From: Candidatus Melainabacteria bacterium 17Bon1m
GTDB lineage: Bacteria > Cyanobacteriota > Vampirovibrionia > Obscuribacterales > Obscuribacteraceae
Direction: 5' to 3'
Assembly: GCA_032128875.1 (NCBI GenBank)
Contig: JAVLKG010000001.1
Span: 416,001 to 480,000 of the forward strand
DNA length: 64,000 nt
Position numbers and translations under genes: made by a program
Shown: in pieces, positions 1,917 to 58,625 of the stretch
Numbering within the stretch: position 1 is the first letter of the stretch
How the letters are laid out: each line of letters opens with the position of its first letter
The notes under the pieces: generated by a model
The model's database searches: none
What the model was told of the DNA's origin: nothing
Seen by the model: the letters and a program-made list of their open reading frames with translations, nothing else

Positions 1917-2025
1917 TCGTTCTCAAGGTTGAGTGTGCGAGCGCTGATCGCTGCCGCCGAGGTAAAGCCGCCACTGGCGGAGGCTTTCGTGCTTTCGTAA
2001 AGTCATCAATAGTCCTTTAGTATGA
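1917..2025. promoter_or_regulatory. Regulon boxes in a divergent promoter (1917-1932, 2010-2025)
   Basis: TCGT-TCTCAAGG-TTGA and TAGT-CCTTTAGT-ATGA; 2008-2025 is the exact reverse complement of 46120-46137. Confidence 0.65.
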
Positions 2026-2116
2026 GTGCCGGATTTTCAGTAACAATAGATTGATGACAGTCCTAGGAACGATATAAACGGTCCGGTGAAAGAACATACT
2101 GAAAAGGTATTGCCTC

Positions 2117-4951
2117 ATGAGGTCCGTTATGTCGAAGGGACTCGCCGACCCAGTCTTTCACGCCGACAGTATTGCCGCAAACTCTAGTGAAAAGCAGATG
2201 CCGAACATTGAAAATGCCGAAGAAAGTGCTGAACCAGGTGCCGGCTCTATCATTCCGGCTTTGCCCGACAAGCCGTTCTTGCTTTCGATCGAGCGAGCAT
2301 CTTTATTGCCTGCACAACAAGTTGCTGCTCGTCTTGAGACTGACGTAGCGCTCGGTTTGAGCCTAGATGAAGCCGCAAGCCGGTTAGAAAGGTTTGGCAC
2401 CAATGAGCTTGGCAAAAGGGTTCAAATCAATCCTATTCATCTATTCTTCAATCAATTTATTTCTACAGTCGTGGCATTGCTTCTCGTCGCGGCAGGCGTT
2501 TCTGAATTTGCCGGTGAGCACATGCAAGCGGCCGGTATTGCCATTGCAGTCTTAATTAATGCTATTGTCGGTTTTATCACTGAGTACAAAGCCGCTGTGT
2601 CTCTGGCTGCGCTGGAAAAGCTCTCCGGTCCCGTAGCGCGTGTGCGTCGAGGCGGGCAAGATTTCGAAGTTCCAGCGGCCGAGATTGTTCCTGGCGATAT
2701 TTTGATCATGGAAGAGGGATCTCGTGTGCCCGCGGACGTCCGGCTGGTCACTTCCTCTTCGCTCAGCCTGGACGAATCGATGCTCTCCGGCGAGAGTATT
2801 CCGGTCTACAAATCTAGCGAATTAGGCGATTCGACCGAGCAAGTTACAGTCGCCTATCAAGGTACTCTGATTCTGAAAGGTCGTGCGAAAGGTGTCGTCG
2901 TCGCCACCGGTAGCAATACCAAATTAGGTCAGCTTGGACATTCACTCACCGAAATTCGCACAAAGTCCACGCCACTTCAAGACGACCTGGAGAAACTTGG
3001 CCGCCAGTTGAGTTTGTTCACCGTCGTGATTTGCGCTGTGTTGTTTGGCTTGGGTTTGCTCCATGGCGAAAAATTGTGGGAAATGGTGCAAGTTTCAATC
3101 GCACTGGCCGTTGCTGCAATCCCCGAGGGGTTGCCTGTAGTTGCGACGCTCGCATTGGCTTCCGGCACCAATCGCATGGTTAAACTTGGAGCGTTGATTA
3201 GAAAGTTGAGTGCGGTAGAAACCCTCGGTTGCACGGAGATAATCTGCACCGACAAGACAGGAACACTTACTCAAAATCAAATGACGGTCACGGATATTGT
3301 TCTTGATGGACGTGAAATAAATGTGTCCGGATTGGGATACACACCTGAGGGTGATTTCCACGAAAACAATTGCGTGGTGCTGGAAGAGGAAAGGTCGTTC
3401 TTAAAACCACTTTTGACTGCGGCCGTTCTTTGCAATGATGCAAAACTTGAGATGCATGAGGACTCCAAGTGGCATATTCACGGAGATCCTACCGAAGGGG
3501 CGCTGCTTACTGTCGGGCTTAAGGCCGGCATTGAGCAGAAGAGCCAGCGAGATGAGTTGCCACGGCAGCATGAGTTTCCGTTCGAGCTCAGCCGTAAGCG
3601 CATGACCACGATTCACCAATCGCAAGGAGGCGATTTCCTTGCTTACACCAAGGGCGCGCCGGAAACTGTGCTGTCTTTGTGCAAAAACTATTTAAGCGCG
3701 GATGGTGTGGCGCAACTCGATGAAACACGCAGAAACTGGTTTCTCGAAAAGAATCTAGAACTGGCGAGTAAGGGACTGCGAGTTCTGGGATTGGCGGCAA
3801 GAGATCTGGCGGGTAAGAAAGTTTCAGCGCACTCCGATGCTGAAACAGATATGACATTTTTAGGGCTGATTGGGATGGCTGATCGTCCAAAAGAAGGTGT
3901 TCTCGAAGCAATCGAAGAATGCAAGCGTGCCGGCATCAAAGTAGTGATGGTAACTGGAGACCATCCCGCAACAGCCGTTTCAATAGCGCGCGACTTGAAT
4001 ATCGTGCCATTTTGTTCTACGGAGGCTGCTCATAAGGTAGTAGTCGGCAGCGAGCTTGAACAGTTAGGCGCGAGCGAAATTGGCGCACGCCTGGCCGATT
4101 GTAGCGTCCTTGCACGTGTTCAGCCGGAGGCAAAGCTTTCCATTGTTCGTGCGTTGCAGTCCAGTGGAAAAGTCGTCGCTATGACAGGTGATGGTATCAA
4201 CGACGCACCCGCGTTACAGCAGTCCGATATCGGCGTCGCGATGGGGAAATCGGGTACTTCCCTTGCGCGCGAAGCCTCCGATATGGTCATTACCGACGAT
4301 AATTTCAGCACAATTGTCCATGCAATCGAGCAGGGTCGTGTCATTTATGCCAATATATCTTGCGCCGTTGCCTATCTACTTACTGCCAGCCTGGCGTCTG
4401 TTCTTACCGTGGCGGCTGCTGTTGTTTTCGATACGGGGCTGCCCCTGTCACCACTTCAATTGTTGTGGTTGAACCTGATTATGCATATCTTTCCTGGACT
4501 TGGTCTTGTTCTGCAGCGTGGTCGTCCAGGCATCATGCGGGAAGCACCTCGCGGAAGAAAGCAATCTCTTCTCGGAAAGAGAGAGTATACGCATATAGTG
4601 TTGCGCTCGCTGGTTGTTTCTCTTTTGACTATTTTTGCTGCACAAAACGTACAAGGGCAATCGCTGGAATATGTAAGAACGGTTGTTTTGGCGACGATTT
4701 CGATTGCACTACTTCTGCAAGCTTGGTCTTGGTTGGCATTCAAGCGTAACGCGGATGATTGGTCATATCTAAGCAGCGTTGCAATGTACATCAACACGGC
4801 CCTGGGTATCGCTTTGCTTTTGTTGGCGGTTCTTTTCCCTCCGATGCAAGCAATCCTTGGTACGGTTTGCTTGAGCAACGCACACTGGGGAATGGTTATT
4901 CTCTTTGCACTCTTCGGCTACTTGCTCACTTCTATCATTCAGGATTATTAG
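2117..4951 (+). CDS. Cation-translocating P-type ATPase (P2A/Ca2+-like, CtpF-like)
   Basis: IPEGL, DKTGTLT phosphorylation motif, KGAPE, TGD, GDGINDAP; start codon uncertain. Confidence 0.93.
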   Translation: MRSVMSKGLADPVFHADSIAANSSEKQMPNIENAEESAEPGAGSIIPALPDKPFLLSIERASLLPAQQVAARLETDVALGLSLDEAASRLERFGTNELGKRVQINPIHLFFNQFISTVVALLLVAAGVSEFAGEHMQAAGIAIAVLINAIVGFITEYKAAVSLAALEKLSGPVARVRRGGQDFEVPAAEIVPGDILIMEEGSRVPADVRLVTSSSLSLDESMLSGESIPVYKSSELGDSTEQVTVAYQGTLILKGRAKGVVVATGSNTKLGQLGHSLTEIRTKSTPLQDDLEKLGRQLSLFTVVICAVLFGLGLLHGEKLWEMVQVSIALAVAAIPEGLPVVATLALASGTNRMVKLGALIRKLSAVETLGCTEIICTDKTGTLTQNQMTVTDIVLDGREINVSGLGYTPEGDFHENNCVVLEEERSFLKPLLTAAVLCNDAKLEMHEDSKWHIHGDPTEGALLTVGLKAGIEQKSQRDELPRQHEFPFELSRKRMTTIHQSQGGDFLAYTKGAPETVLSLCKNYLSADGVAQLDETRRNWFLEKNLELASKGLRVLGLAARDLAGKKVSAHSDAETDMTFLGLIGMADRPKEGVLEAIEECKRAGIKVVMVTGDHPATAVSIARDLNIVPFCSTEAAHKVVVGSELEQLGASEIGARLADCSVLARVQPEAKLSIVRALQSSGKVVAMTGDGINDAPALQQSDIGVAMGKSGTSLAREASDMVITDDNFSTIVHAIEQGRVIYANISCAVAYLLTASLASVLTVAAAVVFDTGLPLSPLQLLWLNLIMHIFPGLGLVLQRGRPGIMREAPRGRKQSLLGKREYTHIVLRSLVVSLLTIFAAQNVQGQSLEYVRTVVLATISIALLLQAWSWLAFKRNADDWSYLSSVAMYINTALGIALLLLAVLFPPMQAILGTVCLSNAHWGMVILFALFGYLLTSIIQDY

Positions 4952-4957
4952 TGAGCA

Positions 4958-5025
4958 CTGTTCGGAAGAATGACTCTGGAATAGTTCAGCAGAATGATAA
5001 TTGAATGTCTGATCGCAGTCACAAT
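4958..5025 (+). promoter_or_regulatory. Tandem regulon boxes (4958-4973, 4982-4997) plus -10-like CACAAT (5020-5025)
   Basis: CTGT-TCGGAAGA-ATGA and TAGT-TCAGCAGA-ATGA, 24 bp apart; 22-nt spacer to CACAAT. Confidence 0.6.
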
Positions 5026-5061
5026 TGTAGAATTCAAATTCATTAGCACTTGAGGTTGGAT

Positions 5062-5948: not shown

Positions 5949-6263
5949 AGAAGATAGAGAGTGTTGAGAAAGATCTGGATTACAGGCAAGGAGAAGAGTT
6001 GGATAGTGTTGCCACCCCCGCGAAGTCTGGCTCTACTGAAAGACCGCAATAGTCCTTTGGAGCGATGCGCGAGCTTAAACGACGTAGCGACGCTATCTGG
6101 ATTGTCGACAAATTAGTCCGAAAAAACGATGGACGATTAGCTGGGTGGTGGAAAAATACAGATACGACGCAGGTTCTCCAGTGAGAGCGACCAGGGATGG
6201 TTACTGCCGAGGGCGGCACCGGCCCTGCGAACAATTTACATAACTCGGATGTGGAGCGGAGAA

Positions 6264-6786: not shown

Positions 6787-7335
6787 ATGCAGCTTGAAAT
6801 GACAAAACTGAAGACCTCCCACTATCGTGTGTTGGAAACTTTGCGCGACGGACGTGAGGTGGAGATTAGGTCGATTGTTCCTCAAGACAAAAAGGTTCTT
6901 GCTGAAGGAATGCATCACCTCAGCCCGACTTCTTTGTATTACAGATTCCTCACTCCCAAAAGGGAGCTGACCGAGAAAGAGCTTTCCTACTTCACAGAAG
7001 TGGATTTCTTGCACCATGTTGCGCTCCTTGCTGCCGTAGAGCAAGATGGCAGTTATCTGCCTGCAGGAGTTGGTCGTTATGTGATGTCTAATTCTGCCGA
7101 TTCAACATGCGCCGAACTTGCTTTTGCTGTGAGCGAGGAATTTCAAGGATTGGGCATTGCTACATTGCTTTTGAAGCATCTCACTTTGATAGCCAGGGAA
7201 AATGGTCTCAAGGCATTTTCTGCGCTCGTCCTGGCGGATAACAGGAAGATGTTAGAAGTTTTCAAAAACTGCAACTTGGAAATGACCACAAAAGCGAACA
7301 ATGCAGGTGTATTAGAAATAAGACTGGAAATCTGA
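6787..7335 (+). CDS. GNAT N-acetyltransferase (stand-alone Pat-like GNAT domain)
   Basis: LSPTSLYYRF, AELAFAVSEEFQGLGIATLLL (acetyl-CoA motif A), N.KML.VF. Confidence 0.88.
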   Translation: MQLEMTKLKTSHYRVLETLRDGREVEIRSIVPQDKKVLAEGMHHLSPTSLYYRFLTPKRELTEKELSYFTEVDFLHHVALLAAVEQDGSYLPAGVGRYVMSNSADSTCAELAFAVSEEFQGLGIATLLLKHLTLIARENGLKAFSALVLADNRKMLEVFKNCNLEMTTKANNAGVLEIRLEI

Positions 7336-7399
7336 TACCGAAGGATGAAATCTAATCATCCGCAAAGATCATGCACTTAATTTTGTTGCGCTGCACAAT
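7333..7399 (+). promoter_or_regulatory. Tandem regulon boxes (7333-7348, 7356-7371) plus -10-like CACAAT (7394-7399)
   Basis: TGAT-ACCGAAGG-ATGA and TCAT-CCGCAAAG-ATCA; 22-nt spacer to CACAAT. Confidence 0.65.
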
Positions 7400-8581: not shown

Positions 8582-8728
8582 TCTGCTCAAAGGCTGATAC
8601 TAATCATCAAAAGAATGATTGCATCGCTTCGCGACTGTCGATCTCGTGTGAATCAGGGTTTCGGCTTATTTCTCAGGTACTCATCATACCTGCGAATGAA
8701 GTCACTATAGAGATATTGCTTCTATGCT
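8582..8728. promoter_or_regulatory. Divergent Hsp20/lyase promoter with several regulon boxes
   Basis: TCTG-CTCAAAGG-CTGA (8582-8597), AATCAT-N7-ATGATT (8602-8620), TCAT-ACCTGCGA-ATGA (8684-8699) followed by TATGCT (8723-8728). Confidence 0.6.
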
Positions 8729-8758: not shown

Positions 8759-10105
8759 ATGAAGAAGAAAGAGAAAAGCGGTCGCAAAGACTATCGCATG
8801 CGTAGTGCAATGGTCGACGGTAACTACGACAGTAAACATTGGGAATACGACCACCATCTCGTGCCTCCGATTTCGTCATCAGTTGCCTATCGGCTTAGTT
8901 CGGTGCACAGGGGCGAAGAAGGATTTGCTCAATTTGGTGAAGTTGCAGATCTGCAGAATGATCCTATTTTCGTGTATGACAGGCTTGATGAGCCTTCACG
9001 TGGCATGCTCGAGGAAAAACTAGCCTATGCGGAGTCAGGTGATATTGCCGTTTCTTTTGCCACAGGAATGGCTGCCATAAGCGCCGCTTTGTCGATTCTG
9101 ACGAGGCAAGGCGATCAAATCGTTGCTCACAATACACTATATGGCTGTACCTTCAGTCTTCTGTCTCACTGGTTTCCTAAATATGGAATTGAAACGAAAT
9201 TCGTCGATCTGAGATCAAGTGAAAATCTGCTGTCATCCATAACTTCTCGAACCAGGGTTGTTTACCTTGAAACCCCAGTAAACCCTACATTGGATATCAT
9301 CGACATTCGAGCGCTAAAAAACTGTGTTTCCGAAGCTAATAAAACGAGAGCCGACCAAGAGAAGATCGTTATTGTTGTCGATAACACATTTGCTACACCC
9401 TTTTGTCAGCGACCGTTGACTCTAGGCGCGGATATTGTTGTGCATAGTCTGACAAAGAACATTGCCGGCTTCGGAACCGACATGGGTGGAGCTGTTATCG
9501 CAGCTTCGAAATATCAACGAGATTTACTTCTCTATAGAAAAGACTTTGGCGGCGTGCTTTCTCCGCGTTCTGCCTGGCCTATTCTTGTGTACGGGTTGCC
9601 GACTCTGGCCGCGCGGATGGTCAATCAGCAAAAGTCCGCGATACACATTGCGCGTTTTCTTGAAAAGCACCCTTTGGTAAAAAGAGTACTGTATCCCGGA
9701 CTTAAATCATTTCCTCAAAAGCAACTTGCAGAATTACAAATGGTAAGTTGCGACGGGCGCTTCGCTCCAGGCTCGGTACTTTATTTCGAACTGAAAGCAG
9801 GTACGAGCACAGAAGAGGAAAAGACAGCTGAGCTTTTTATTGATGACGTCGCCAGGAGTTCGCGCTGTATAAATCTGGCGGTAAGTCTGGGGCAAGTGCG
9901 TACACTGATAGAAGCGCCATACTCAATGACTCATTCAGCTTTGCCTGCAGATTTTAAAGACGCGATTGGAATCTCGCCGTCGGGAATACGCTTGTCTTTG
10001 GGATTGGAAGACTGGCACGATATCGAAGCCGACTTGAAGGCGTCGCTTGATCGTACGGAGATTATGCTGAAATTGCATTCTCATGCAACCTATCCTTCTC
10101 TATAA
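8759..10105 (+). CDS. PLP-dependent Cys/Met metabolism lyase, methionine gamma-lyase-like
   Basis: SFATGMAAI, TLYGCT (Cys typical of methionine gamma-lyases), LETPVNP, DNTFATP, HSLTK PLP lysine, IRLSLGLED. Confidence 0.85.
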   Translation: MKKKEKSGRKDYRMRSAMVDGNYDSKHWEYDHHLVPPISSSVAYRLSSVHRGEEGFAQFGEVADLQNDPIFVYDRLDEPSRGMLEEKLAYAESGDIAVSFATGMAAISAALSILTRQGDQIVAHNTLYGCTFSLLSHWFPKYGIETKFVDLRSSENLLSSITSRTRVVYLETPVNPTLDIIDIRALKNCVSEANKTRADQEKIVIVVDNTFATPFCQRPLTLGADIVVHSLTKNIAGFGTDMGGAVIAASKYQRDLLLYRKDFGGVLSPRSAWPILVYGLPTLAARMVNQQKSAIHIARFLEKHPLVKRVLYPGLKSFPQKQLAELQMVSCDGRFAPGSVLYFELKAGTSTEEEKTAELFIDDVARSSRCINLAVSLGQVRTLIEAPYSMTHSALPADFKDAIGISPSGIRLSLGLEDWHDIEADLKASLDRTEIMLKLHSHATYPSL

Positions 10106-10147
10106 CTCTTAAATTTCGGATTCTCAAAACCTATAAAAAAGAGAAAG

Positions 10148-10180
10148 AAGACCGAGAGCTGTCTCGGTCTTTTTTCTTTT
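10148..10180. terminator. Bidirectional intrinsic terminator
   Basis: AAGACCGAGA-gctg-TCTCGGTCTT flanked by A- and T-rich tracts between convergent genes. Confidence 0.8.
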
Positions 10181-10203
10181 ACCTCTATATGAATAATTGT
10201 CTA

Positions 10204-10632
10204 TTAGACCAAGCTGCAATACATTGGATGAGATGCTTCCTGCGGGCCCGGACAAGTCTCATTTTTTCTCTCTCCCTTCTGAAATATGTCGCGGCCTGTC
10301 CAGGTCGATTTCCAACTTTGAGATTTCTTTTGCTGCGCATCGGCAACCATCTGCCAACTTGCCTCGAATGAATTCTCCTCGTTATCGACAAATTGACCTA
10401 TCCATGTTGTTATAGTTTTGTGATTGGAAAAGGCCACGCTAAAGCAGAACACATCACCAACTGCAAAGCCGGTTAGAGGATATGTCGTGGCTGAGTCTTC
10501 ACGCGAGATTACGCCGCTCATGAAACAACCGGTAATTTTGCCAGATTCATCCACTTCAATATGCATCTGAGAATTGTGTTGGTTGTGCCAGATGCCTGAC
10601 AAAAGCTTTTGAACTTCTTCTTTGGTCTTCAT
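10204..10632 (-). CDS. Avidin/streptavidin-family protein without a signal peptide
   Basis: LSGIWHNQHNSQM, ITGCF, YPLTG, TTWIGQ, SWKSTWTGRDIFQK match the streptavidin pattern WYNQLGS...TTWSGQ...WKSTLVGHDTFTK. Confidence 0.85.
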   Translation of the reverse strand: MKTKEEVQKLLSGIWHNQHNSQMHIEVDESGKITGCFMSGVISREDSATTYPLTGFAVGDVFCFSVAFSNHKTITTWIGQFVDNEENSFEASWQMVADAQQKKSQSWKSTWTGRDIFQKGERKNETCPGPQEASHPMYCSLV

Positions 10633-10686
10633 TTCTTTTACTCCACAGAACCTCAACAATCATCCAACTGAAATAAGAAAGCTGTA

Positions 10687-10824
10687 TGGACTCAAGGAAC
10701 GATCTGCCATGAGTCTTTTGGATGATAGTCCACATACTTTTAGTTGCCGTTGCTTCCTTATGGAAGATATCTCCCTCCAATGATTCTTGGGGACGATATC
10801 GCATCGCGTGTAATGAATTAGATT
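10687..10824. promoter_or_regulatory. Divergent avidin-like/rubredoxin promoter with three regulon boxes
   Basis: TGGA-CTCAAGGA-ACGA (10687-10702), TGAG-TCTTTTGG-ATGA (10710-10725), TGAT-TCTTGGGG-ACGA (10781-10796); TAGATT at 10819 after a 22-nt spacer. Confidence 0.6.
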
Positions 10825-10854
10825 GCAAGAAAGCAGCTGTATCGGGTTTACGTT

Positions 10855-11097
10855 ATGCACGACGGTATCTTCGACTTCTATTTTTGCGACAAATGCCGAG
10901 CGTATGTTCTTGACGAAAAGCAAGGTGACGCCAAGCGCGGCATTTTGCCAAACACAGCCGTTCAACGACTCGCGACTAACTGGAAATGCCCGATATGCGG
11001 CGGTACTTCGGATGAGCTGAGAGCAGTGACGATGTTCGATCATATAAGGAAGAGTGACGTCCTAACACCATCGTTTACTGCTACGAAATCGATCTAA
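10855..11097 (+). CDS. Rubredoxin-like protein
   Basis: CDKC...GD...GI.P.T....L..NWKCPICG. Confidence 0.85.
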   Translation: MHDGIFDFYFCDKCRAYVLDEKQGDAKRGILPNTAVQRLATNWKCPICGGTSDELRAVTMFDHIRKSDVLTPSFTATKSI

Positions 11098-11114: not shown

Positions 11115-12473
11115 ATGTTACAGACGTCCGGGACGCCAATGGCACCTGATTCCCAAGTAAGCAAACAGGTTCGTCGTCATGCGGTTCCTTTCACCGGCGA
11201 GAAGAATGAGCTGAATAGTCTTATGGAGTTGATTGGAGAGTCTTCTTTCGTTTTGATAGGAGAAGCTTCGCATGGCACGCATGAATACTATAAAACGAGA
11301 ATTGACCTGACAAAGAGATTAATCGAAGAAAAGGGCTTCAACGTTGTTTGTGCTGAAGCCGACTGGCCTGATGCTTTACGAGTCAATCGCTACGTAAAAG
11401 GTATAAGCGATGATAAGAGCGCTGTCTCCGCATTGGCTGGTTTTCAGCGTTTTCCCACTTGGCTGTGGCGAAATGCAGATGTCCTCTCTTTTGTCGAATG
11501 GTTGAAGACCTACAACGAAACGTTTGGCAGGTTTGATCAAAAGGTTGGCTTCTATGGGCTGGATCTATACAGCCTTTACCGCTCTATTGAAGCCATCATC
11601 AATTACCTCCAACCAATCGATCCCGATGCCGCAGATAGAGCAAGGGAGAGATACAGCTGCCTTTCGGCCTACGGTTATGACGAGCAGGCGTATGGTTATG
11701 CTGCAGCCCTTGGCTTAGCCAGAGAATGTGAGGAAAACATACTCAATCAGTTGGTCGAATTGCAAAAGAAAGAACTTGATTATTTGAAGAAGGACGGACC
11801 GAGAGCAAAAGAAGAATTCTTCTTCGCTGAGCAAAATGCCATTCTTGTTGCCCATGCGCAAGCATATTATCGCGAGATGTTCCGAGGGCGCATGAGTACC
11901 TGGAATCTGCGAGACACCCACATGATGAAAACACTTCTCAATTTGCGGGACCATATGAAAGAATCTGGCACTCAGATGAAAGCTGTAATCTGGGCTCATA
12001 ATTCGCACCTTGGCGACGCTCGGGCGACAGAAATGTCCAGTCGCGGTGAGCTTAATTTAGGACAGCTAGTTCGACAACATCTTGGTGAGAATTGCTGTCT
12101 CATCGGCTTTAGCGGCAATTCAGGAACAGTTACAGCTGCGTCGAAATGGGGTGGCCCGGCTGAAAGGAAAAATGTTAGACCAGGCATGATCGGCAGTTTT
12201 GAGAATTTATTCTCTAAGGTGGATCTGCCTGCCTTTATCTTGCCATTCAGAGCGACCGACTTGATCAACGGGCTTAGACATCCGAGGCTTCAGCGAGCAA
12301 TCGGAGTTTTGTATATTCCAGAGACGGAAAGATACAGCCACTATTTCTTTTCGACACTGCCCAAGCAGTTTGACGCTCTCATTCATTTTCAGGAGACTCA
12401 GGCTGTCGAACCACTTGAGCGTAATGCTCTGTGGACGGAAGGCGAGACAAGGATAGAAGACCTTGTTGACTGA
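11115..12473 (+). CDS. Erythromycin-esterase-family protein (Rv2030c C-terminal-like)
   Basis: IGEASHGTHE, EADWPD, GFYGLDLYSL, WNLRD, WAHNSHLGDARAT, RAIGV.Y.PE.E..SHY. Confidence 0.9.
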   Translation: MLQTSGTPMAPDSQVSKQVRRHAVPFTGEKNELNSLMELIGESSFVLIGEASHGTHEYYKTRIDLTKRLIEEKGFNVVCAEADWPDALRVNRYVKGISDDKSAVSALAGFQRFPTWLWRNADVLSFVEWLKTYNETFGRFDQKVGFYGLDLYSLYRSIEAIINYLQPIDPDAADRARERYSCLSAYGYDEQAYGYAAALGLARECEENILNQLVELQKKELDYLKKDGPRAKEEFFFAEQNAILVAHAQAYYREMFRGRMSTWNLRDTHMMKTLLNLRDHMKESGTQMKAVIWAHNSHLGDARATEMSSRGELNLGQLVRQHLGENCCLIGFSGNSGTVTAASKWGGPAERKNVRPGMIGSFENLFSKVDLPAFILPFRATDLINGLRHPRLQRAIGVLYIPETERYSHYFFSTLPKQFDALIHFQETQAVEPLERNALWTEGETRIEDLVD

Positions 12474-12583
12474 GTTCACCACGTCTAAGCGATCATGTTC
12501 AACTAAATAACGCGACTAAGCCTCAATTGAATGAGTTGAGTGCGTTTCGTGGACATTCATAATCAAAGAGCAAGGAGTTTCTG

Positions 12584-13276
12584 ATGCGCACGAAAAATGT
12601 CGATAGATGGGTCCGAGAAGCCGTTCAGATTGACGCTGGTGACCAATGCCTTCATGGGAATCTATGTATTCCGCCTCAGGCAAAGGGACTGATTGCCTTC
12701 GTGCATGGTAGCGGAAGCAGCAGGTTCAGTACGCGCAATTTATTTGTGGCAGAGTTCTTGAATGAAAGAGGTTTTGCCACTTTGCTGTTCGATCTACTGA
12801 GCAGTTCAGAAGAGCAAATAGACAATGTGACCGCGCGCTACAGATTTGATATTCCGCTCTTGTCGCGCAGAGTCATGCACGTAACTGAATGGATTCAAAA
12901 TGAACCAAGAACTCAGCAACTTTCAATCGGCTATTTCGGTGCTAGCACTGGAGCCGCCGCAGCACTGGTTTCAGCTTCCAACGTAGGCACTCGTGTAAAG
13001 GCAGTTGTTTCCAGAGGTGGAAGACCGGATTTGGCATCGGGACATCTTTCAAGGGTTGATTGTCCAACTTTATTTTTAGTGGGCGAAAGAGACACTGATG
13101 TTCTAAAGCTCAATCTTAAGGCTCTGGCACTCTTGCCTGAAACGACAGTCAAGGACATCGAAATCGTCCCGGATGCTACACATCTCTTTGAGGAGCCGGG
13201 CGCTCTTGCAGTAGTTGCTAACGCTGCTGCACGCTGGTATAGCACCTACCTAAATAAAAAGATTTGCCGAGCCTGA
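12584..13276 (+). CDS. Dienelactone-hydrolase-like alpha/beta hydrolase
   Basis: HGSGSSR.S.RN, GYFGASTG nucleophile elbow, SRGGRPDLA, ATHLFEEPG. Confidence 0.9.
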   Translation: MRTKNVDRWVREAVQIDAGDQCLHGNLCIPPQAKGLIAFVHGSGSSRFSTRNLFVAEFLNERGFATLLFDLLSSSEEQIDNVTARYRFDIPLLSRRVMHVTEWIQNEPRTQQLSIGYFGASTGAAAALVSASNVGTRVKAVVSRGGRPDLASGHLSRVDCPTLFLVGERDTDVLKLNLKALALLPETTVKDIEIVPDATHLFEEPGALAVVANAAARWYSTYLNKKICRA

Positions 13277-14253: not shown

Positions 14254-14345
14254 ATTGTCAAATACTTCTCAGCGAACAGCATCCTCCACAGAGATGATCC
14301 CTGCAAAGCCGGGTTTTTCCGGTTGGACTCATACCAAAGATGAGT
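14254..14345. promoter_or_regulatory. Divergent promoter with regulon boxes (14282-14297, 14327-14345)
   Basis: TCCT-CCACAGAG-ATGA with minus-strand GACAAT (14259-14254) after a 22-nt spacer; ACTCAT-ACCAAAG-ATGAGT. Confidence 0.6.
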
Positions 14346-14968: not shown

Positions 14969-15012
14969 TGATACCTAAGAAGGAGGTGTGTTGCCTTTTG
15001 CTTAAGTAGGCT
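14969..15012 (+). promoter_or_regulatory. Regulon box (14969-14984) plus -10-like TAGGCT (15007-15012)
   Basis: TGAT-ACCTAAGA-AGGA; 22-nt spacer. Confidence 0.55.
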
Positions 15013-21189: not shown

Positions 21190-21205
21190 TCCTCCCAAAG
21201 TATGA
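21190..21205. promoter_or_regulatory. Regulon box in the hypF/USP divergent promoter
   Basis: TCCT-CCCAAAGT-ATGA. Confidence 0.6.
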
Positions 21206-21352
21206 CTTTCTTTCAAAGTGGCGTTTTTCTGCTCATAATCGGAATGGTCCAGACGAACGATATGTTCCAGCCTGAAATTGGACAAAATGGTACTTGGATG
21301 CTGCCATGGGCGTCGCTTCTAATTCGGCGTCCGATTTCCTGGAGGAGAGACA

Positions 21353-22791: not shown

Positions 22792-22927
22792 GGTAGGTCC
22801 GGAGCATCCCTTGGAATAACCGCCAAGAACCGTCCCCAAGAATTCTCTAACGATCATTCCTCAGAAGCATGCGACGTTCGACACTTGCAGGCAGAATGTA
22901 AAAACAAATCGGCATTCCAGGAAAGAA

Positions 22928-24761: not shown

Positions 24762-24830
24762 GTCATACTTAAGTATGACTTTTGTCTGATACTTTGAGCC
24801 GATATGCCATGCTGCAAAAGGCGGTATCTT
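24762..24830 (+). promoter_or_regulatory. Perfect 18-bp palindrome, second box and -10-like TATCTT
   Basis: GTCATACTTAAGTATGAC (24762-24779); TGAT-ACTTTGAG-CCGA (24787-24802); TATCTT (24825-24830). Confidence 0.75.
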
Positions 24831-24991: not shown

Positions 24992-25035
24992 TAGTCCTGC
25001 CGAACGATACTTTAGAAGACATATTCGTCTGTAAT
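24992..25035 (+). promoter_or_regulatory. Hydrogenase operon box (24992-25007) plus -10-like TGTAAT (25030-25035)
   Basis: TAGT-CCTGCCGA-ACGA; 22-nt spacer. Confidence 0.55.
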
Positions 25036-36452: not shown

Positions 36453-36646
36453 TTCTTTGTACCTGCTTATGCTGGCTGTGCCACGAATTTCTTCATTGTT
36501 TCTTACTTTCTTGACTGACGTATCAGTCAAATTGACTAATCGAAAAGAGTTGTTGAAAGGACTAATGTTGACCTGAATCATCCTTGAGAACAATGTCCCT
36601 TTAGGCGCAAAGGTCACACAATTAGAAAACTACTTCTTTCAATTAG

Positions 36647-36890: not shown

Positions 36891-36918
36891 GCGTGGCTCA
36901 TTCAAAAGTATGAGCCAC

Positions 36919-37680
36919 TCAGACTATGCCGCGCCGCAGTGCATGTACCGCTGCTTGGGTTCTGTCGTCTACAGACAGCTTATTGAGAATGTTTCTGACG
37001 TGCGTTTTTGTTGTAGGCAGCGAAATAAAGAGCTTGTCTGAAATTTGCTGGTTGGACAGACCTTCGACAATCAACCCCAGCACTTCGAGCTCTCTTGTCG
37101 AAAGCGGTTCTACATACGGTCTGTCCGGTACATGACCTTCGTCCGGAGAATCTTTCTTTCCTGCATGGGCCGCCGGCTCTGCATCTTGGTTTTCTTCCCC
37201 GGTCGCTGCTTGCTCTTGGGAGGTATGTGACTGTTGCGAATACAACTTCAGAACTTTGCTGGCAATGGCGGTATCCAGCCAGGCATCGCCTGCCTTTACT
37301 GTGCGTATAGCCATGTAAAGACGCGAATCTTCGACGTCTTTCAAGCAATAACCGGATGCACCGGCAGTGAAAGAAGCCATAACATCCTGGTCATTATCAT
37401 GTTGCGTAAGCATGATGATTTTGGCGTTACTTCCGCTTTCCATAATCTTCTTCGACGCTTGAATGCCGTCCATTATCGGCATGCCTACATCCATCAAGAT
37501 TACGTCTGGTTTGAGCAAGGCAGCTTCTCGAACCGCTTCTTCTCCATTGGATGCCTCCCCGACAACAATTAAATCGCTTTCACGCTTCAAGACTGTTTTA
37601 ATACCAACCCGCGTCAGGGCGTGGTCTTCAACCAATAGAATGCGTATCGTCTTGCCTTCGTTTTTGCTTTCGTCCGTCAT
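36919..37680 (-). CDS. NarL/LuxR-family response regulator
   Basis: REC domain (VEDH, LMD, LT, LK) and LuxR HTH LSTRELEVL..GLSNQQI...T.KTHVRNIL.KL. Confidence 0.95.
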   Translation of the reverse strand: MTDESKNEGKTIRILLVEDHALTRVGIKTVLKRESDLIVVGEASNGEEAVREAALLKPDVILMDVGMPIMDGIQASKKIMESGSNAKIIMLTQHDNDQDVMASFTAGASGYCLKDVEDSRLYMAIRTVKAGDAWLDTAIASKVLKLYSQQSHTSQEQAATGEENQDAEPAAHAGKKDSPDEGHVPDRPYVEPLSTRELEVLGLIVEGLSNQQISDKLFISLPTTKTHVRNILNKLSVDDRTQAAVHALRRGIV

Positions 37681-37783
37681 ATTTTAATTTCCAAGCCGGG
37701 ACGTAATTATATATACTCCCAAATCGAAGCAGTAGTCTGCTTGACGACTGGCGTGTGACCGAATAAATACTGTGGGCTTGACA

Positions 37784-39388
37784 ATGAATGTGACTTCTCC
37801 ATTTTCGGAGCTGAGTGAATCTGAGATCAAACAGCGCCAGCGTTGGCTTGAATTCGAGTCGATTTCTGAAGCGGAAATAGCTGCTATTAACGCGCTTCTC
37901 GAAAAACATGCAGATGAGCTCATGGACAGCATGTACGAACACTTTTTGAGCTTCGAGGAAACGCGCAGTTTCTTCCCTACCGAGCAGATAATGCAGAGAG
38001 CCAAAGGCGCTCAAAAGCAGTATTTCTTGCGACTCGGTCGGGGCGTCTATGACACTGATTATGTGAGAGACAGACTCAGAGTAGGATTGACTCACCACCG
38101 AATTGAGCTCGATCCAAAATGGTACATAGGAGCTTACAACAGAGCTGCATCATGGCTTATGCCGAGACTCTTTGCCGAAAACGATTTAAGCGAATCGGCT
38201 AAAGTCGACCTGGCGAGGTCACTTCTAAAACTCATTTTTTTCGACATGGGGCTGGCCATTGAAAGTTATATCGGGTCGAAAGAATTGGCTCTCCTCGAGC
38301 ATCGAGATGCAATTAGAGAGTTAGAGACGGAAAAGAGAGTCACAAAGAGCATTCTCGAAAGTGCTCCTATCGGCATTGTAAGTTTAGATCTCGATTACAG
38401 ATGTCTTGAGTGCAATGAAGAGTTTGCTCAGCTTGTTTCCTGTGATTCCACTTCTGACGTTATTGGAAAATTGCTCTTTGATCTGGCCCCAAAGCTTCCT
38501 CAGGAGCCTTTCAAACACGTAATCGAAACAGGTCAACCAAGCCAGTTCTCGGCCAATGCTCTTAATTTTGCAAAGAACAATCCCACTGAGGTTACTTACT
38601 GGGATTGGGCGGCCTGGCCGGTAAAAAACAAAGGTGTATACGGCATTGTTGCCATGTTCTCGAATGCAACCGATAGAGTTCAGTTGCAACAACAAAGAGA
38701 AGATTTTGTTGCCACTCTTACTCATGACCTAAAAACCCCTGTTTCTGCAACCAATCGTGCGGTCAAGCTCATTCTTGCCGGGGATTTTGGCGAAGTTTCT
38801 GCCGAACTAAGGGAAATTCTCGAGACAGTTTTGCAAAGCAACACAACTCTGTATGCGCTCGTTCAAACTTTGCTTGATGTCTATCGCTTTGACAGCGGTG
38901 TCAAGGTTATGGATATGAAAGAGTGTAACCTGGCCGGGATAGTTACACAGCTTGTCACCGAAATCATGCCTTTGGCTCAAGAAAGGCGCATTCAGCTCAA
39001 GGCTGTTTTGCCATTTGATCTTGAGTGCATAAATTGCGACCAAGAAGAAGTCCGCCGTGTTGTGCAGAACTTGATTGACAATTCGCTTAAATTCACTCCG
39101 GCTGGCGGTACCGTCACCGTCACAATGTCTCAGAACGATGAACTCACCACCGTCTCGGTAAAAGACACTGGAAAAGGCATCCCGCCTGAGAACATGTCCA
39201 AGCTATTCCAAAGATTCTGGCAAGCCGGATCAAGCGGTCGATACTACGCTAGTACCGGACTCGGTCTTTACCTGGCAAGAAAAATTGTCGAAGGTCATGG
39301 CGGCAAAATTTCATGCGAGAGTAAGGTGGGAGAAGGCAGCACATTCTCGTTCGAGCTGCCTAATTCAGGCCAAACTCCAAAGAGCTAG
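37784..39388 (+). CDS. Globin-coupled (protoglobin)-PAS sensor histidine kinase
   Basis: Globin with MYEHF, AQKQYF and proximal His in RVGLTHHRIEL.P.WY.GAY; PAS (ILESAPIGI); H-box THDLKTP; intact N, G1, F and G2 boxes; no TM. Confidence 0.92.
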   Translation: MNVTSPFSELSESEIKQRQRWLEFESISEAEIAAINALLEKHADELMDSMYEHFLSFEETRSFFPTEQIMQRAKGAQKQYFLRLGRGVYDTDYVRDRLRVGLTHHRIELDPKWYIGAYNRAASWLMPRLFAENDLSESAKVDLARSLLKLIFFDMGLAIESYIGSKELALLEHRDAIRELETEKRVTKSILESAPIGIVSLDLDYRCLECNEEFAQLVSCDSTSDVIGKLLFDLAPKLPQEPFKHVIETGQPSQFSANALNFAKNNPTEVTYWDWAAWPVKNKGVYGIVAMFSNATDRVQLQQQREDFVATLTHDLKTPVSATNRAVKLILAGDFGEVSAELREILETVLQSNTTLYALVQTLLDVYRFDSGVKVMDMKECNLAGIVTQLVTEIMPLAQERRIQLKAVLPFDLECINCDQEEVRRVVQNLIDNSLKFTPAGGTVTVTMSQNDELTTVSVKDTGKGIPPENMSKLFQRFWQAGSSGRYYASTGLGLYLARKIVEGHGGKISCESKVGEGSTFSFELPNSGQTPKS

Positions 39389-41993: not shown

Positions 41994-42009
41994 TCATCAC
42001 AAAGTATGA
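41994..42009. promoter_or_regulatory. Regulon box upstream of the USP trio
   Basis: TCAT-CACAAAGT-ATGA. Confidence 0.65.
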
Positions 42010-42010
42010 G

Positions 42011-44463: not shown

Positions 44464-44880
44464 TTATGAGTAACGATGGACCTCTTGAAGCAGAAGATCG
44501 AAAATCACGGGTGCAAGATTGGAACAGCTCAGTTGGCAGTCGAGCGGTTTTGCTTTTCCTGAGGCCATCCTTGCTCTGTAATAACTCAATCTGTTCTGAA
44601 ATGATTTCCAGGCTGTTTGCATGTCTGCTGCACTCGTCGTGTTATTCCTGCTTGCGAAAAAGTGCTGTAATACTTTATATGCGGCCTGGCAGCATTCGCA
44701 GCAATCGGTCAGATCATTTTCTGGGTTGCCGACGGTTTCAATCTCTTTCGGGTCACCGCCATCCTCAAATACACCAAACTCCCTTGCTCCTTGCTGAATA
44801 GCCTGAGCTCCAGTCAGTCCGTTGCCCACAAGTAAATCGTGAATATATAAACGGGCGCTTGGAAAGCTTAGCGACTTCAT
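44464..44880 (-). CDS. Hypothetical protein with CCECC motif
   Basis: 138 aa; ATGA overlap with the upstream gene and ends just before ppsA. Confidence 0.6.
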   Translation of the reverse strand: MKSLSFPSARLYIHDLLVGNGLTGAQAIQQGAREFGVFEDGGDPKEIETVGNPENDLTDCCECCQAAYKVLQHFFASRNNTTSAADMQTAWKSFQNRLSYYRARMASGKAKPLDCQLSCSNLAPVIFDLLLQEVHRYS

Positions 44881-46010: not shown

Positions 46011-46162
46011 TCATGCAAAGGGACTAGGGCCAGTCAACCGAAGCTCTCGGTCACTTACTTTCTTTCAAAATTGCCCCGGACCCAACCGCATTATTTAGGA
46101 TAGTCACTACGATTTGCCTTCATACTAAAGGACTATTCATTCGGGTAAGTAAGAGGCAAACT
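46011..46162. promoter_or_regulatory. Divergent promoter with regulon boxes (46011-46026, 46120-46135)
   Basis: TCAT-GCAAAGGG-ACTA and TCAT-ACTAAAGG-ACTA; CAAACT at 46157. Confidence 0.65.
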
Positions 46163-46300
46163 GCTCTGGATTTCCGCTTTTGCTGGTCTTAACAACAGTC
46201 AAACCTGGGAACGATGGGGACATTTCTCCCAGATGGCACTATTAAAGCCAGGCGGCGTTTGCAAAGGTTACTTTGCCGCCCACGTTGGAGAGGCGAGAGT

Positions 46301-49221: not shown

Positions 49222-49265
49222 CCATACTAAAGGTCGATGGCGAAAGTCGTTTTGCTAACTAGATT
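49222..49265 (+). promoter_or_regulatory. Regulon box (49222-49237) plus -10-like TAGATT (49260-49265)
   Basis: CCAT-ACTAAAGG-TCGA; 22-nt spacer. Confidence 0.6.
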
Positions 49266-51820: not shown

Positions 51821-51836
51821 TAGTCCTTAGGTATTA
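51821..51836. promoter_or_regulatory. Regulon box
   Basis: TAGT-CCTTAGGT-ATTA. Confidence 0.55.
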
Positions 51837-52008: not shown

Positions 52009-52530
52009 ATGTTTAACCTGTTTAAAAACTCTGATGAAGACACCGACGAGGTAATGCCGGAATTTCGCCTTTCCTCAATAACATCTCAGTTGCCTAGGCT
52101 TGTAAGAATGCGCATTGATAACGCAAAAGAGTGCGCTTGCGAACGCTGTGGCGATTTGCTCGACAATCTGCATATGAAGACGAAGCTGCTCGAACAACAC
52201 CATCAAGCCGAATTACCAGCATTGTCTTTCTGGACCCGCTTTCACAAAGATGGAGGGTCTCCACACTTTGAAATGCAACTCGACAACAAGTTAAAACTGA
52301 CAACTTCCGAACTTACGCGCCATGATGAATTCATCGACACGCTCTTGGAAGTTGAACACAATTGGCAGCGCTCGCAAAGGAGCACTTGCTCCAACGATGA
52401 TACCGATCGCTTCTGGATGAATCATTACCTTGAACTGAAAAATATGATTGCCGAGCAAAGAGAGCGCGACGAGGAATCGCTCGACGACCTTAGAGCTGCC
52501 GTATTGCAAAATCCAGAGTCTGAGAGTTGA
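52009..52530 (+). CDS. Hypothetical helical His-rich protein (possibly hemerythrin-like)
   Basis: HHQAE and other spaced His residues; CACERC; GAGG RBS before ATG 52009. Confidence 0.55.
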   Translation: MFNLFKNSDEDTDEVMPEFRLSSITSQLPRLVRMRIDNAKECACERCGDLLDNLHMKTKLLEQHHQAELPALSFWTRFHKDGGSPHFEMQLDNKLKLTTSELTRHDEFIDTLLEVEHNWQRSQRSTCSNDDTDRFWMNHYLELKNMIAEQRERDEESLDDLRAAVLQNPESES

Positions 52531-52581: not shown

Positions 52582-52625
52582 TCATACTTCGTGATGATGC
52601 CTGATTGAGCCTATGGCTCTAAACT
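52582..52625 (+). promoter_or_regulatory. Orphan regulon box (52582-52597) plus -10-like TAAACT between convergent genes
   Basis: TCAT-ACTTCGTG-ATGA; 22-nt spacer to TAAACT (52620-52625). Confidence 0.55.
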
Positions 52626-52724: not shown

Positions 52725-53528
52725 CTAAGAGCTGGACCAATTCGACGGACGCCATCGCTTGTCTTTTGTCAGACCAATTGAAGTCGTTTTCAATTTGGAT
52801 GCATCGTTTATCCGGCTCACTAAGCCGAGCTTCTGCATCGATCTGATCACCAGCCACGATACGTCAATCTCAAAAGGATGCATGCCGGTGCGTGCAGAAC
52901 CTGGAAATGTGTGATGGTTGTTGTGCCAACCTTCGCCCATGGCGAGTAAAGCAACCCACCAGACATTGACGCTGTCATCTTTGCTTTGGAAGTTTTTATA
53001 ACCAAGGTGCGGGATGTGACAAACAACGTTCAGCATCAGTGGTATTTGCAAAACTGCAAAGCCAGCAAGCAAGCTTGCTAATGCTGCCACCCATCCGAAG
53101 TATGCGAAGATAATCAGCCTAAAGCCAATGTTGATGGCATAGGACAACAAGTGAGAGTGTAGAAGATTGCCGTTAAGTTCGAGACAACGGTAAATAGGAT
53201 CACGAACGAGGTCTTTTGACTGTTTGTAGGGATCCATATGCGCTTCGTATGATTCACGCAGTATCCATCCAATGTGAGCCTTTCGCAATCCGTATCGCGG
53301 TGAATGAGGATCAAGCGGAGTGTCAACATAATGATGATGAGCGCGGTGAATAGTCGCCCACCAAATTGGTGAACCCTCAAAAGACAGATAGCCTAGAAAA
53401 ACCCAAAAATATTCAATGATTTTTGGACACGAAAATGATCGGTGTGAGAGCAGCCGGTGATAGCCAACTGTTACACCAAGACCGTGTAACAAGTAGCTGA
53501 TGGCGAACACGATTAGAAAATCGGTCAT
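52725..53528 (-). CDS. Delta-9-type fatty acid desaturase
   Basis: His boxes HRLLSH, HRAHH, GEGWHNNHH. Confidence 0.93.
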   Translation of the reverse strand: MTDFLIVFAISYLLHGLGVTVGYHRLLSHRSFSCPKIIEYFWVFLGYLSFEGSPIWWATIHRAHHHYVDTPLDPHSPRYGLRKAHIGWILRESYEAHMDPYKQSKDLVRDPIYRCLELNGNLLHSHLLSYAINIGFRLIIFAYFGWVAALASLLAGFAVLQIPLMLNVVCHIPHLGYKNFQSKDDSVNVWWVALLAMGEGWHNNHHTFPGSARTGMHPFEIDVSWLVIRSMQKLGLVSRINDASKLKTTSIGLTKDKRWRPSNWSSS

Positions 53529-54549: not shown

Positions 54550-54637
54550 TCGTCCAGACGGACTAGCTTCTCTGGTTGCAGTTTTTTTGAGAGTGATACC
54601 TTTGATTGAAGCTTTGCAGTCGAATTGGTTTTAGATT
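54550..54637. promoter_or_regulatory. Divergent promoter with boxes (54550-54565, 54594-54609) and TAGATT (54632-54637)
   Basis: TCGT-CCAGACGG-ACTA; TGAT-ACCTTTGA-TTGA; 22-nt spacer. Confidence 0.6.
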
Positions 54638-55036: not shown

Positions 55037-55059
55037 CACGTCAATAAATTCCTAAAACT

Positions 55060-58077: not shown

Positions 58078-58306
58078 TCGAGTTCTCGCTTACTTGCCTG
58101 CAAGCAAGTGATGCATACTCATTTATTTTGTCAGGTTAAAGACGAAATTGGCAAATTCGATGCTTGGATTGGTTCATGCAGCCTGGGTTCAGAACCTGGC
58201 TAGATTTTGCGCTGTTCTCTCATCCTTGCGTACGATATAGGCACTTGCATACCTTGTTATCATTCTTCTGCCTTGGAACTCCGAAATTCGCAAAGGCAGG
58301 TGTGTC

Positions 58307-58522
58307 ATGGAATTCATCGAGCTGAAAAAAGATATTTATCTGGCCCTCATAGTTTTGGGTCTTATTCTCCTTTTCATCGGAATACGAATGGCTCATAACG
58401 CATTCGGTGTCGATCTGGCCGGAACAATCCTTTTCTTGGTCGTTACCATTCAAGGAAGCGTTTGCTTCGGATTCGGTGCATTTACGTGGCTTCTAGAAGA
58501 AGACCCTGAGATTTGGAATTGA
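58307..58522 (+). CDS. Small two-TM membrane protein
   Basis: 71 aa hydrophobic ORF with AGGTG RBS. Confidence 0.6.
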   Translation: MEFIELKKDIYLALIVLGLILLFIGIRMAHNAFGVDLAGTILFLVVTIQGSVCFGFGAFTWLLEEDPEIWN

Positions 58523-58609
58523 GATATTAGATTCGTAGCCGGATGTTCTTGCACTCGAGGTGACTGTTCATTTTGCTCGGATGGGTACACCCAAGATTAT
58601 TCGGTTTAA

Positions 58610-58625
58610 TCATCCCAAAGAACGA
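58610..58625. promoter_or_regulatory. Regulon box upstream of alpha-2-macroglobulin
   Basis: TCAT-CCCAAAGA-ACGA. Confidence 0.6.

Follow-up and report, generated by a model that had tools for sequence, protein, structure and literature searches.

A stretch of 64,000 nucleotides from Candidatus Melainabacteria bacterium 17Bon1m (contig JAVLKG010000001.1, positions 416,001 to 480,000; "the window" in the following) holds a 57-kb island of stress, hydrogenase and ion-pump genes, and a short palindromic box recurs in the gaps between them. We conclude that the box marks a real, previously undescribed regulon of a NarL/LiaR-type activator, whose DNA binding, transcription starts, activating role and signal are predicted here. 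With a probability of roughly 70%, the box is the operator of the island's own two-component system, a globin-coupled histidine kinase paired with a NarL/LiaR-type response regulator that would act as a class-II-type activator. Observed directly were a motif confined to non-coding DNA and set at a fixed distance from a -10-like hexamer, its conservation across genomes together with the regulator and the families of the target genes, and the family kinship of the regulator and the kinase.

Identification of the box

The window's non-coding DNA, extended by 30 nt at the gap edges (+-30 nt), comprised 7,628 18-mers, each of which served as a seed for palindromic expectation-maximisation; the 40 best seeds were refined, a procedure that avoids circularity. 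The resulting matrix was substituted for a literal consensus search, and bit scores given below refer to it unless stated otherwise. All 15 of the best refined runs listed converged on ATCATCCTTAAGGATGAT, with about 33 sites, so that a box originally read by eye as a 16-bp palindrome was recovered de novo from intergenic DNA. It has the form aTCATnC-N4-GnATGAt, in which T1, T4, C6, G11, A13 and A16 of the 16-mer are informative and the four central bases are nearly free, with a slight A/T bias. While the motif itself stood, its literal wording did not: the exact sequence TCATACN4GTATGA matched the window only once, at 24763. Up to two mismatches gave 10 matches where 1.46 were expected, a number reached by none of 100 shuffles, indicating that the consensus of the original prediction was too strict and the motif nevertheless real. 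The 29 sites listed in that prediction show two half-site flavours, TCATAC and TAGTCC, within the looser pattern T-x-x-T-x-C-N4-G-x-A-x-x-A.

A scan of the whole window returned 25 matches of at least 12 bits, 24 of them in the extended non-coding DNA (10.3 kb) and one in deep coding DNA (53.7 kb), as compared to a mean of 1.37 and a maximum of 5 in Markov simulations. The sole "coding" match (scan position 10780) sits in a spurious, family-less open reading frame (ORF), 58 nt upstream of a rubredoxin gene. At a threshold of 11 bits, 19 of the 36 non-coding gaps accounted for all 28 matches, each lying in a gap or no more than 45 nt from one. The claim that the copies occur at or next to intergenic gaps was borne out within the window, where matches are far denser in non-coding than in coding DNA. 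Among the 29 coordinates that had been listed, 23 scored at least 11 bits and 10687 scored 9.2; 8582 (0.6 bits) and 14329 (3.0 bits) found no support. The remaining three (4958, 24787 and 54594) were weak, at 6.6-7.3 bits; two of these are tandem partners of stronger boxes and two are followed by a correctly spaced -10. Five strong boxes, at 21245, 36578, 36898, 46199 and 58220, had been missed.

Promoter geometry

The hexamer [TC]AnnnT was counted at every offset on both sides of each box of at least 11 bits. All ten -10-like hexamers named in the original prediction are present, each after a gap of exactly 22 nt. At this gap the hexamer occurred in 10 of the 56 flanks in the window, other offsets averaging 1.34 (Poisson P 1.5e-6). 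The same gap stood out in twenty loci with orthologous regulators (L001-L020, described below), with 25 of 166 flanks against a mean of 4.89 (P 1e-10) and a shoulder at gap 23. The 35 flanks with such a hexamer shared further features: T (28/35) and G (21/35) directly follow the box, and a G stands two bases 5' of the hexamer in 20. If the hexamer is taken as -12 to -7, the 22-nt gap places the box at about -50 to -35, with its centre near -42.5.

Of a -35 element, the box promoters show no more than the remnant "aTG", separated from the -10 by 17 nt. A full promoter, TTGACG-17-TAAATA, is found between the regulator and kinase genes, where no box is present, a difference that fits a dependence of the box promoters on an activator. 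The computational tests thus agree with the proposal that the box covers the -35 region as the site of a class II activator would, with transcription starts predicted from this geometry. Several ORF starts (49237, 46214, 36617 and 25034) contain the box or the -10, and the geometry explains them as over-long ORF calls. The proposed tandem spacing of 23-24 bp was seen in 5 of 18 close pairs in the window and was weaker elsewhere, where 5 of 35 close pairs were spaced 22-25 bp.

Conservation of the box together with the regulator

The regulator of the window is 92% identical to one in a Melainabacteria metagenome-assembled genome (MAG), and orthologs of 51-76% identity were found in 19 further loci, mostly labelled Obscuribacterales or Melainabacteria. 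The window matrix (at least 12 bits) gave 65 matches in these 20 ortholog loci (347 kb), where about 7.8 were expected, and 4 matches in 21 loci of more distant or unrelated regulators, where about 6.2 were expected. The two kinds of locus also differed within a single MAG, in which the ortholog locus L009 had four matches and the paralog locus L021 none. On gene maps of L001-L020, which are crude (greedy longest ORFs of at least 70 aa), 46 of the 65 matches were intergenic and 19 fell "inside" ORFs; 46 is a lower bound, since several of the ORFs holding matches are short and family-less.

The positions of the boxes relative to gene families were kept as well. Of 58 ORFs flanking matches in the ortholog loci, 27 belong to families represented in box-headed units of the window: 8 universal stress proteins (USP), 3 phosphoenolpyruvate (PEP) synthases, 3 P-type ATPases, 3 cytochromes c, 2 FtsH, 2 HypF, 2 acetyl-CoA hydrolases, and one each of HycI, the Fer4_22 hydrogenase subunit, phosphoribosyltransferase (PRTase) and tetratricopeptide repeat (TPR) protein.

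A separate de novo search restricted to the non-coding DNA of L002-L020 led to ATCATCCTTAAGGATGAT again in 5 of 10 refined seeds. Four other seeds ended in a GC-rich pattern; its "sites" numbered more than 1,000, and we take it to be compositional heterogeneity between the genomes. The last seed gave another pattern of low specificity. Applied to the window, the L002-L020 matrix gave 8 matches of at least 12 bits, all non-coding or at gene edges and none in 51.8 kb of deep coding DNA; 0.38 were expected from Markov-simulated non-coding DNA. The half-site elsewhere is mostly TCATCC or TCATTC, and the TCATAC flavour is peculiar to the window.

Two observations concern individual loci. In L020, the stretch matching the regulator (10001-10724) contains four stop codons in one frame, and the locus still carries four boxes; the stretch would be either a frameshifted or degraded copy or an assembly error. 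Contigs assigned to Drouetiella sp., Oculatellaceae cyanobacterium and "Proteobacteria bacterium" carry the loci L003, L005 and L009, with orthologs of 57-66% identity and with boxes ahead of genes for FtsH, cytochrome c, USP and PEP synthase, an arrangement that speaks either for mis-binned contigs or for a transferred island. The cyanobacterial HIP1 element (GCGATCGC) has no copy in the window, two in the Drouetiella locus and none in the Oculatellaceae locus, counts that do not decide the question of mis-binning.

The regulator and the kinase

In a Pfam search that assigned gene families to the 62 window ORFs, a single DNA-binding regulator came up, the protein encoded at 36919-37680 with a receiver and a GerE/LuxR-type helix-turn-helix (HTH) domain. 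Ten ORFs, including the nine family-less ones of the window, were rescanned against Pfam at lenient thresholds, which yielded one weak resolvase-like domain and no other regulator. The regulator gene lies divergent from the kinase gene across a 91-bp gap (37681-37771). The kinase has protoglobin (PF11563, 2.5e-36), PF00512 and PF02518 domains; among solved structures, the globin-coupled sensors 2w31 and 1or4 match its globin part, and haem binding is predicted.

The closest solved relatives of the regulator are, in order, Enterococcus LiaR (5hev, 7e-46), VraR, NarL, ChrA and DevR (3c3w, 7.1e-31); the LiaR/VraR matches include 7ve6 and 4gvp at E about 2-3e-38. The names of its best 120 relatives are generic or automatic, such as "NarL/FixJ family response regulator", and include "LiaR" twice. 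Its phospho-acceptor D64 (...ILMDVGMP...) aligns with the aspartate of LiaR and VraR and is invariant in 24 of 24 aligned sequences; the alignment did not include L004, and L020 was dropped for its four stop codons. The recognition helix, KTHVRNILNKL, is identical in the window regulator and all 18 aligned orthologs, whose loci carry the motif, and differs in all five aligned more distant regulators, whose loci lack it. Mapped by pattern on a printed alignment, the retained K-T-H-V contains the equivalents of LiaR Lys177 and Thr178. Helix conservation, the LiaR-like skeleton of the box and the position as sole regulator in the window all agree with the earlier suggestion that the local NarL-type regulator binds the box, and make it the best candidate for the predicted binder.

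Two further features of this gene pair were seen. The regulator and its orthologs have a poorly conserved linker rich in Q, E, S and A between the receiver and DNA-binding domains (residues about 150-190); judged by eye on the alignment, its length runs from some 40 to about 80 residues, L003 and L015 having large insertions, and is much greater than in LiaR and VraR. The promoter in the regulator/kinase gap is a near-consensus sigma-70-type promoter that faces the kinase gene, and being free of a box it suggests that the sensor kinase may be expressed constitutively.

Weighing of the assignment

Several observations weigh against the local regulator as activator at the box. The co-occurrence of motif and regulator follows phylogeny (Obscuribacterales versus others), and by itself it does not tell the local regulator apart from other factors specific to the lineage. 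At gaps 21-23, most minus-strand promoters have a poor -10 or none, and among the 28 window boxes of at least 11 bits 15 have [TC]AnnnT at these gaps on at least one side. The tandem spacing of 23-24 bp, frequent in the window only, is not two helical turns, as is the 21 bp of DevR. The equivalent of LiaR Lys174 is, by the same pattern mapping, Pro or Ala in the regulator and its orthologs. Finally, no box of at least 8.5 bits was found in the regulator/kinase gap, so that autoregulation is not evident. DosR and LiaR typically autoregulate.

Some of these points would be accommodated if the box were real and regulatory and were bound by a factor encoded outside the window, either a NarL-family paralog or a CRP/FNR-type protein. 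Regulators of the CRP/FNR type also use palindromes with four central base pairs, from positions around -41.5, and a centre near -42.5 is equally typical of them. The missing box at the regulator gene and the confounding of co-occurrence with phylogeny would both fit an outside factor, and paralogous NarL-type regulators do exist in these genomes, for instance that of L021 in the MAG that also holds L009. However, no CRP/FNR-type or other additional DNA-binding regulator was found in the window, and the half-site TCATCC is unlike the TTGAT half-site of FNR. The T(X)4C(X)4G(X)4A skeleton of the box is moreover that of LiaR, the closest solved relative of the local regulator, which lies mid-island beside a gas-sensing kinase in every ortholog locus with the motif enriched. 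We therefore consider an outside factor unlikely.

Distinctly less probable is repression, in which the box-bound protein, be it the local regulator or another, would occlude the -35 region until a signal de-represses the genes. A site over -50 to -35 could indeed block polymerase, and some boxes overlap each other or sit between divergent genes. However, a proper -35 is missing from the box promoters, where the remnant "aTG" is left, and is present at the box-free kinase promoter, which fits dependence on an activator. The exact 22-nt phasing suits contact between an activator and polymerase, and repression needs no such precision; the relatives DevR and LiaR activate from such sites. That the copies are a non-regulatory intergenic repeat (resembling a repetitive extragenic palindrome, a miniature inverted-repeat transposable element or a terminator) or a compositional artefact is hardly credible: they are short palindromes found solely between genes, but conservation is limited to six positions around a free centre, in contrast to repeats propagated by copying, the copies have no flanking sequence in common, they stand upstream of genes at a fixed distance to the -10 and ahead of like gene families where the regulators are only 51-76% identical, and the 8 matches to the L002-L020 matrix are far from the simulated 0.38.

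Proposed mechanism

If the box is indeed the operator of the local two-component system, gas at the haem of the kinase, probably O2, NO or CO, would set the phosphorylation state of the regulator. The phosphorylated dimer would then occupy the 16-bp palindrome with one GerE-type HTH per half-site, the conserved Lys of the recognition helix reading the C6/G11 pair. From the promoter-proximal box at about -50 to -35, in front of a -10 that often has a G at -14 and of a -35 reduced to a remnant, the bound dimer would recruit RNA polymerase in class-II-type activation. Some promoters have a further box, either a weaker one 23-24 bp upstream or a distal one at a distance of 45-80 bp, which may contribute cooperativity or serve a divergent partner promoter. 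The predicted regulon spans about 24 promoters and more than 50 genes from 1.9 to 63 kb and would include USPs, a ribosome hibernation factor, a [NiFe]-hydrogenase with its maturation genes, PEP synthase, two P-type ATPases, FtsH, rubredoxin, cytochromes c and genes of the erythromycin-esterase, dienelactone-hydrolase (DLH) and PRTase families. Because of this gene content, induction at low oxygen is favoured, and the regulon is probably a low-oxygen persistence programme.

Genes of the island

The boxes and the two regulatory genes are compiled in Table 1. By Pfam families, the window contains at least 14 USP genes and an S30AE hibernation factor, a four-subunit [NiFe]-hydrogenase (Fer4_22, NAD-binding/FeS, small and large subunits) with the maturation set HypA, B, C, D, E, F and HycI, and PEP synthase, two P-type ATPases, FtsH, cytochromes c, NorB and a globin. 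Erythromycin-esterase, dienelactone-hydrolase and PRTase families and three histidine kinases are also present.

Table 1. Palindromic boxes and proposed regulatory genes of the window (gap, nucleotides from box to -10-like hexamer; hyp, hypothetical protein; PLP, pyridoxal phosphate)
Feature	Position	Strand	Score (bits)	Context
Box	1917..1932		15.5	Divergent gap, hyp138-globin-NorB (-) / P-type ATPase (+)
Box	2010..2025		17.1	TAGATT 21 nt downstream; P-type ATPase 2117-4951 follows
Box	4982..4997	+	14.8	Weak tandem partner 4958; CACAAT 5020 (gap 22); USP-S30AE/HPF operon
Box	6050..6065		12.9	Weaker second box 6114 (10.1 bits); upstream of USP-GNAT
Tandem boxes	7333..7371	+	13.7 (7333), 12.7 (7356)	Spacing 23 bp; CACAAT 7394 (gap 22); USP 7428
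Box	8684..8699	+	15.0	Upstream of Cys/Met PLP enzyme 8747
Tandem boxes	10687..10725	-	9.2 (10687), 11.2 (10710)	Spacing 23 bp; upstream of avidin-family gene
Box	10781..10796	+	17.1	TAGATT 10819 (gap 22); rubredoxin 10855-11097
Box	14282..14297		12.0	Gap PRTase (-) / rhodanese (+)
Box	14969..14984	+	14.3	TAGGCT 15007 (gap 22); TPR gene 15037
Box	21190..21205	-	15.4	HypF-HypD-HypE (-) 41 nt downstream
Box	21245..21260	+	14.3	CAAAAT at gap 22; three USP genes from 21353
Box	22854..22869	+	14.5	Weak tandem partner 22830; CAGAAT 22892 (gap 22); HycI-HypA-HypB-HypC
Perfect palindrome and weak partner	24763..24802	+	16.8 (24763), 7.1 (24787)	Spacing 24 bp
Box	24992..25007	+	13.1	TGTAAT 25030 (gap 22); four-subunit [NiFe]-hydrogenase operon and acetyl-CoA hydrolase
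Box	36578..36593	-	15.1	Upstream of tandem-USP operon; within over-long ORF start at 36617
Box	36898..36913		15.5	Directly 3' of regulator gene; box at equivalent position in L001, L002, L008, L016
Response regulator, receiver and GerE/LuxR-type HTH, proposed binder	36919..37680	-		PF00072 8.5e-27, PF00196 4.2e-19
Globin-coupled histidine kinase, proposed sensor	37772..39388	+		Protoglobin-PAS-HisKA-HATPase
Box	41994..42009	-	13.0	Plus 41937 (9.8 bits); upstream of USP operon 41848-39385 (-)
Box	46011..46026	-	11.3	Heads USP-hyp-hyp-PEP synthase operon (-)
Box	46120..46135		15.6	Within divergent gap
Box	46199..46214	+	13.0	CACTAT at gap 22, kept in L001; hyp151 and second P-type ATPase
Box	49222..49237	+	12.5	TAGATT 49260 (gap 22); USP-FtsH
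Box	51821..51836	+	16.2	Upstream of hyp194
Orphan box	52582..52597	+	15.1	TAAACT 52620 (gap 22); no downstream + strand ORF
Box	54550..54565		14.6	Divergent gap; weak box 54594 with TAGATT 54632 serves hyp118 (+)
Box	58220..58235		17.3	TATCAT at gap 22 on +; 71-aa membrane ORF 58307-58522 follows
Box (highest-scoring)	58610..58625	+	20.0	Alpha-2-macroglobulin-like gene 44 nt downstream

At the perfect palindrome, the 22-nt gap to the hexamer TATCTT (24825) is measured from the weak partner at 24787. The boxes also correct gene calls, namely the rubredoxin gene, the HypC gene and several start codons set too far upstream. The 80-aa rubredoxin (+, PF00301 1.5e-10) starts 30 nt past the TAGATT of its box and lies opposite a longer spurious ORF (10660-11043). 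This box probably drives the erythromycin-esterase-family gene at 11115 as well, which is adjacent to the dienelactone-hydrolase- and PRTase-family genes in the region 11115-13951. With the 72-aa HypC (24527-24745, +; PF01455 1.6e-17), too short for the length cut-off applied to ORFs at first, the HycI-HypA-HypB-HypC operon is complete. The avidin-family protein behind the tandem boxes (10204-10659, -; PF01382 5.8e-20) would not be expected in a stress regulon.

The orphan box at 52582 is directed towards a convergent fatty-acid desaturase gene (52725-53528, -), into its 3' end, and may drive a small RNA or an antisense transcript against this oxygen-dependent enzyme. Around it, no promoter-like site was found, and one terminator-like site only, on the other strand (52466-52480); a search for known RNA families at Rfam gathering thresholds returned none in the window. 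The 71-aa ORF at 58307-58522 (+) has two hydrophobic stretches and no Pfam family and begins about 43 nt past the TATCAT of box 58220. On the opposite strand, two histidine-kinase genes (58077-55151) follow this box at a distance of 142 nt, which hints at a feed-forward loop. The protein encoded at 44877-45458 (-), inside the USP-PEP synthase operon, has a weak resolvase N-terminal-like domain (5.5e-4); in its counterpart in L006 (6875-7456), which has a box directly ahead, the resolvase-like domain scores 7.4e-9.

Significance

Obscuribacterales are uncultured, non-photosynthetic relatives of cyanobacteria, and the titles of database records name wastewater, soil and groundwater as sources. 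We found nothing in print on gene regulation, regulons, DosR or hypoxia regulators in Obscuribacterales or Melainabacteria, in a search whose coverage left most subscription journals outside. We rate as new a NarL-family, class-II-type regulon with a new operator and a new sensor pairing in an unusually compact 57-kb island. It amounts to a predicted, checkable regulatory code of motif, spacing, regulator, sensor and about 24 promoters, which describes how Obscuribacterales may ride out oxygen swings, and it would place a DosR-like persistence programme outside the Actinobacteria, with a different sensor, regulator and operator.

Comparison with known systems

The promoter geometry has parallels in LuxR/TraR-type and NtcA-type class II activation, in which an HTH dimer on a palindrome centred at about -42.5 or -41.5 replaces a weak -35; in cyanobacteria, about 22 nt separate an NtcA site from the TAnnnT -10 box downstream of it. 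These regulators belong to other protein families and respond to other signals, and their sequence motifs are unrelated to the box described here. Among globin-coupled histidine kinases such as AfGcHK, the kinase of the island shares the N-terminal sensor globin fused to HisKA/HATPase and the pairing with a response regulator, and differs in being paired with a NarL-type regulator that has a DNA-binding domain and for which a large regulon is predicted. We know of no regulon or DNA motif described for this kinase class, on which no direct literature search was made; a search on the class in combination with USPs brought up nothing related.

Closest in solved structure are LiaR and VraR, regulators of cell-envelope stress in Firmicutes. 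The LiaR study (PMC4482077) gives the consensus T(X)4C(X)4G(X)4A, which equals the T1-C6-G11-A16 skeleton of our box, where binding is predicted. According to the same text, Lys177 of each LiaR monomer contacts the G of the central C/G pair, with further contacts by Lys174 and Thr178 (PMC4482077); the equivalents of Lys177 and Thr178 are conserved here, while that of Lys174 and the inner half-site bases are unlike. LiaR was also described to cover an adjoining secondary site of low similarity and to form tetramers (PMC4482077), behaviour that, by analogy, could explain the weak tandem partners in the window. Its footprint at liaXYZ, from -120 to -77 relative to the translation start (PMC4482077), lies further upstream than the boxes here. 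No membrane sensor of the LiaF/LiaS type is involved, the kinase being globin-coupled and no LiaF-like family occurring among the 62 ORFs, and the targets are of a hypoxia or persistence type and not of an envelope-stress type.

The system works like DosR (DevR), which governs the dormancy regulon of mycobacteria, in its logic, and it differs from DosR in its box, in its sensor and in the closest kinship of its regulator. Common to both are a NarL-family regulator under a haem-based gas sensor (the haem being predicted here), a USP-rich regulon with hypoxia-metabolism genes, and a palindromic box with C at position 7 of each 9-nt half-site (0.86 here). In the 18-bp DevR motif, G5 and C7 of each half-site are essential (PMC3177182). 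On a numbering that assumes that both 18-mers share the palindrome centre, position 5 here is instead T (0.88) and seldom G (0.03). The resemblance to the DosR box noted originally extends only to the central C-N4-G and breaks down at position 5, and with T in place of the essential G the two boxes are not interchangeable. DevR promoters carry at least two tandem boxes, those of tgs1-Rv3131 being centred at -42.5 and -63.5 (PMC3177182); tandem boxes and a proximal centre at -42.5, judged from the -10, recur here, with a spacing of 23-24 bp instead of 21 bp.

The sensors diverge further, in that DosS and DosT are GAF-haem kinases, whereas the kinase here bears a protoglobin and no GAF domain was found in it by Pfam. 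Moreover, by the scores against solved relatives the regulator is less similar to DevR than to LiaR, VraR, NarL and ChrA, its gene is not preceded by a box, and nearly the whole regulon as seen here forms one contiguous island in the Melainabacteria genome.

In gene content the two systems come close. The DosR regulon has an S30AE-type protein in Rv0079 and a P-type ATPase in CtpF, and domains that adjacent genes of the island encode separately occur fused in its proteins Rv0571c and Rv2030c of M. tuberculosis. Rv2030c, of the hspX operon, joins an erythromycin-esterase and a PRTase domain (PMC4410610). A preprint places the group 3b hydrogenase Hyh and PEP synthase under DosR in M. smegmatis and reports a 70-fold increase of PEP synthase in hypoxia (bioRxiv 10.1101/2023.09.11.557286); on this account, a group-3b-type hydrogenase and PEP synthase are common to that regulon and the island. 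It is conceivable, and in our tentative estimate falls just short of an even chance, that the DosR-type persistence gene set (USPs, hibernation factor, group-3b-type hydrogenase, PEP synthase, erythromycin-esterase/PRTase proteins and P-type ATPase) is an old transferable module that was gathered in Obscuribacterales into a single 57-kb island and rewired to a different sensor (the globin-coupled kinase), a different, LiaR-like NarL-family regulator and a different operator. If so, one gas-sensing switch would govern more than 50 genes through about 24 near-identical class-II promoters, two phyla would share either a convergence at the level of the regulon or a replacement of its regulator, and a testable regulatory code would be at hand for an uncultured sister lineage of cyanobacteria.

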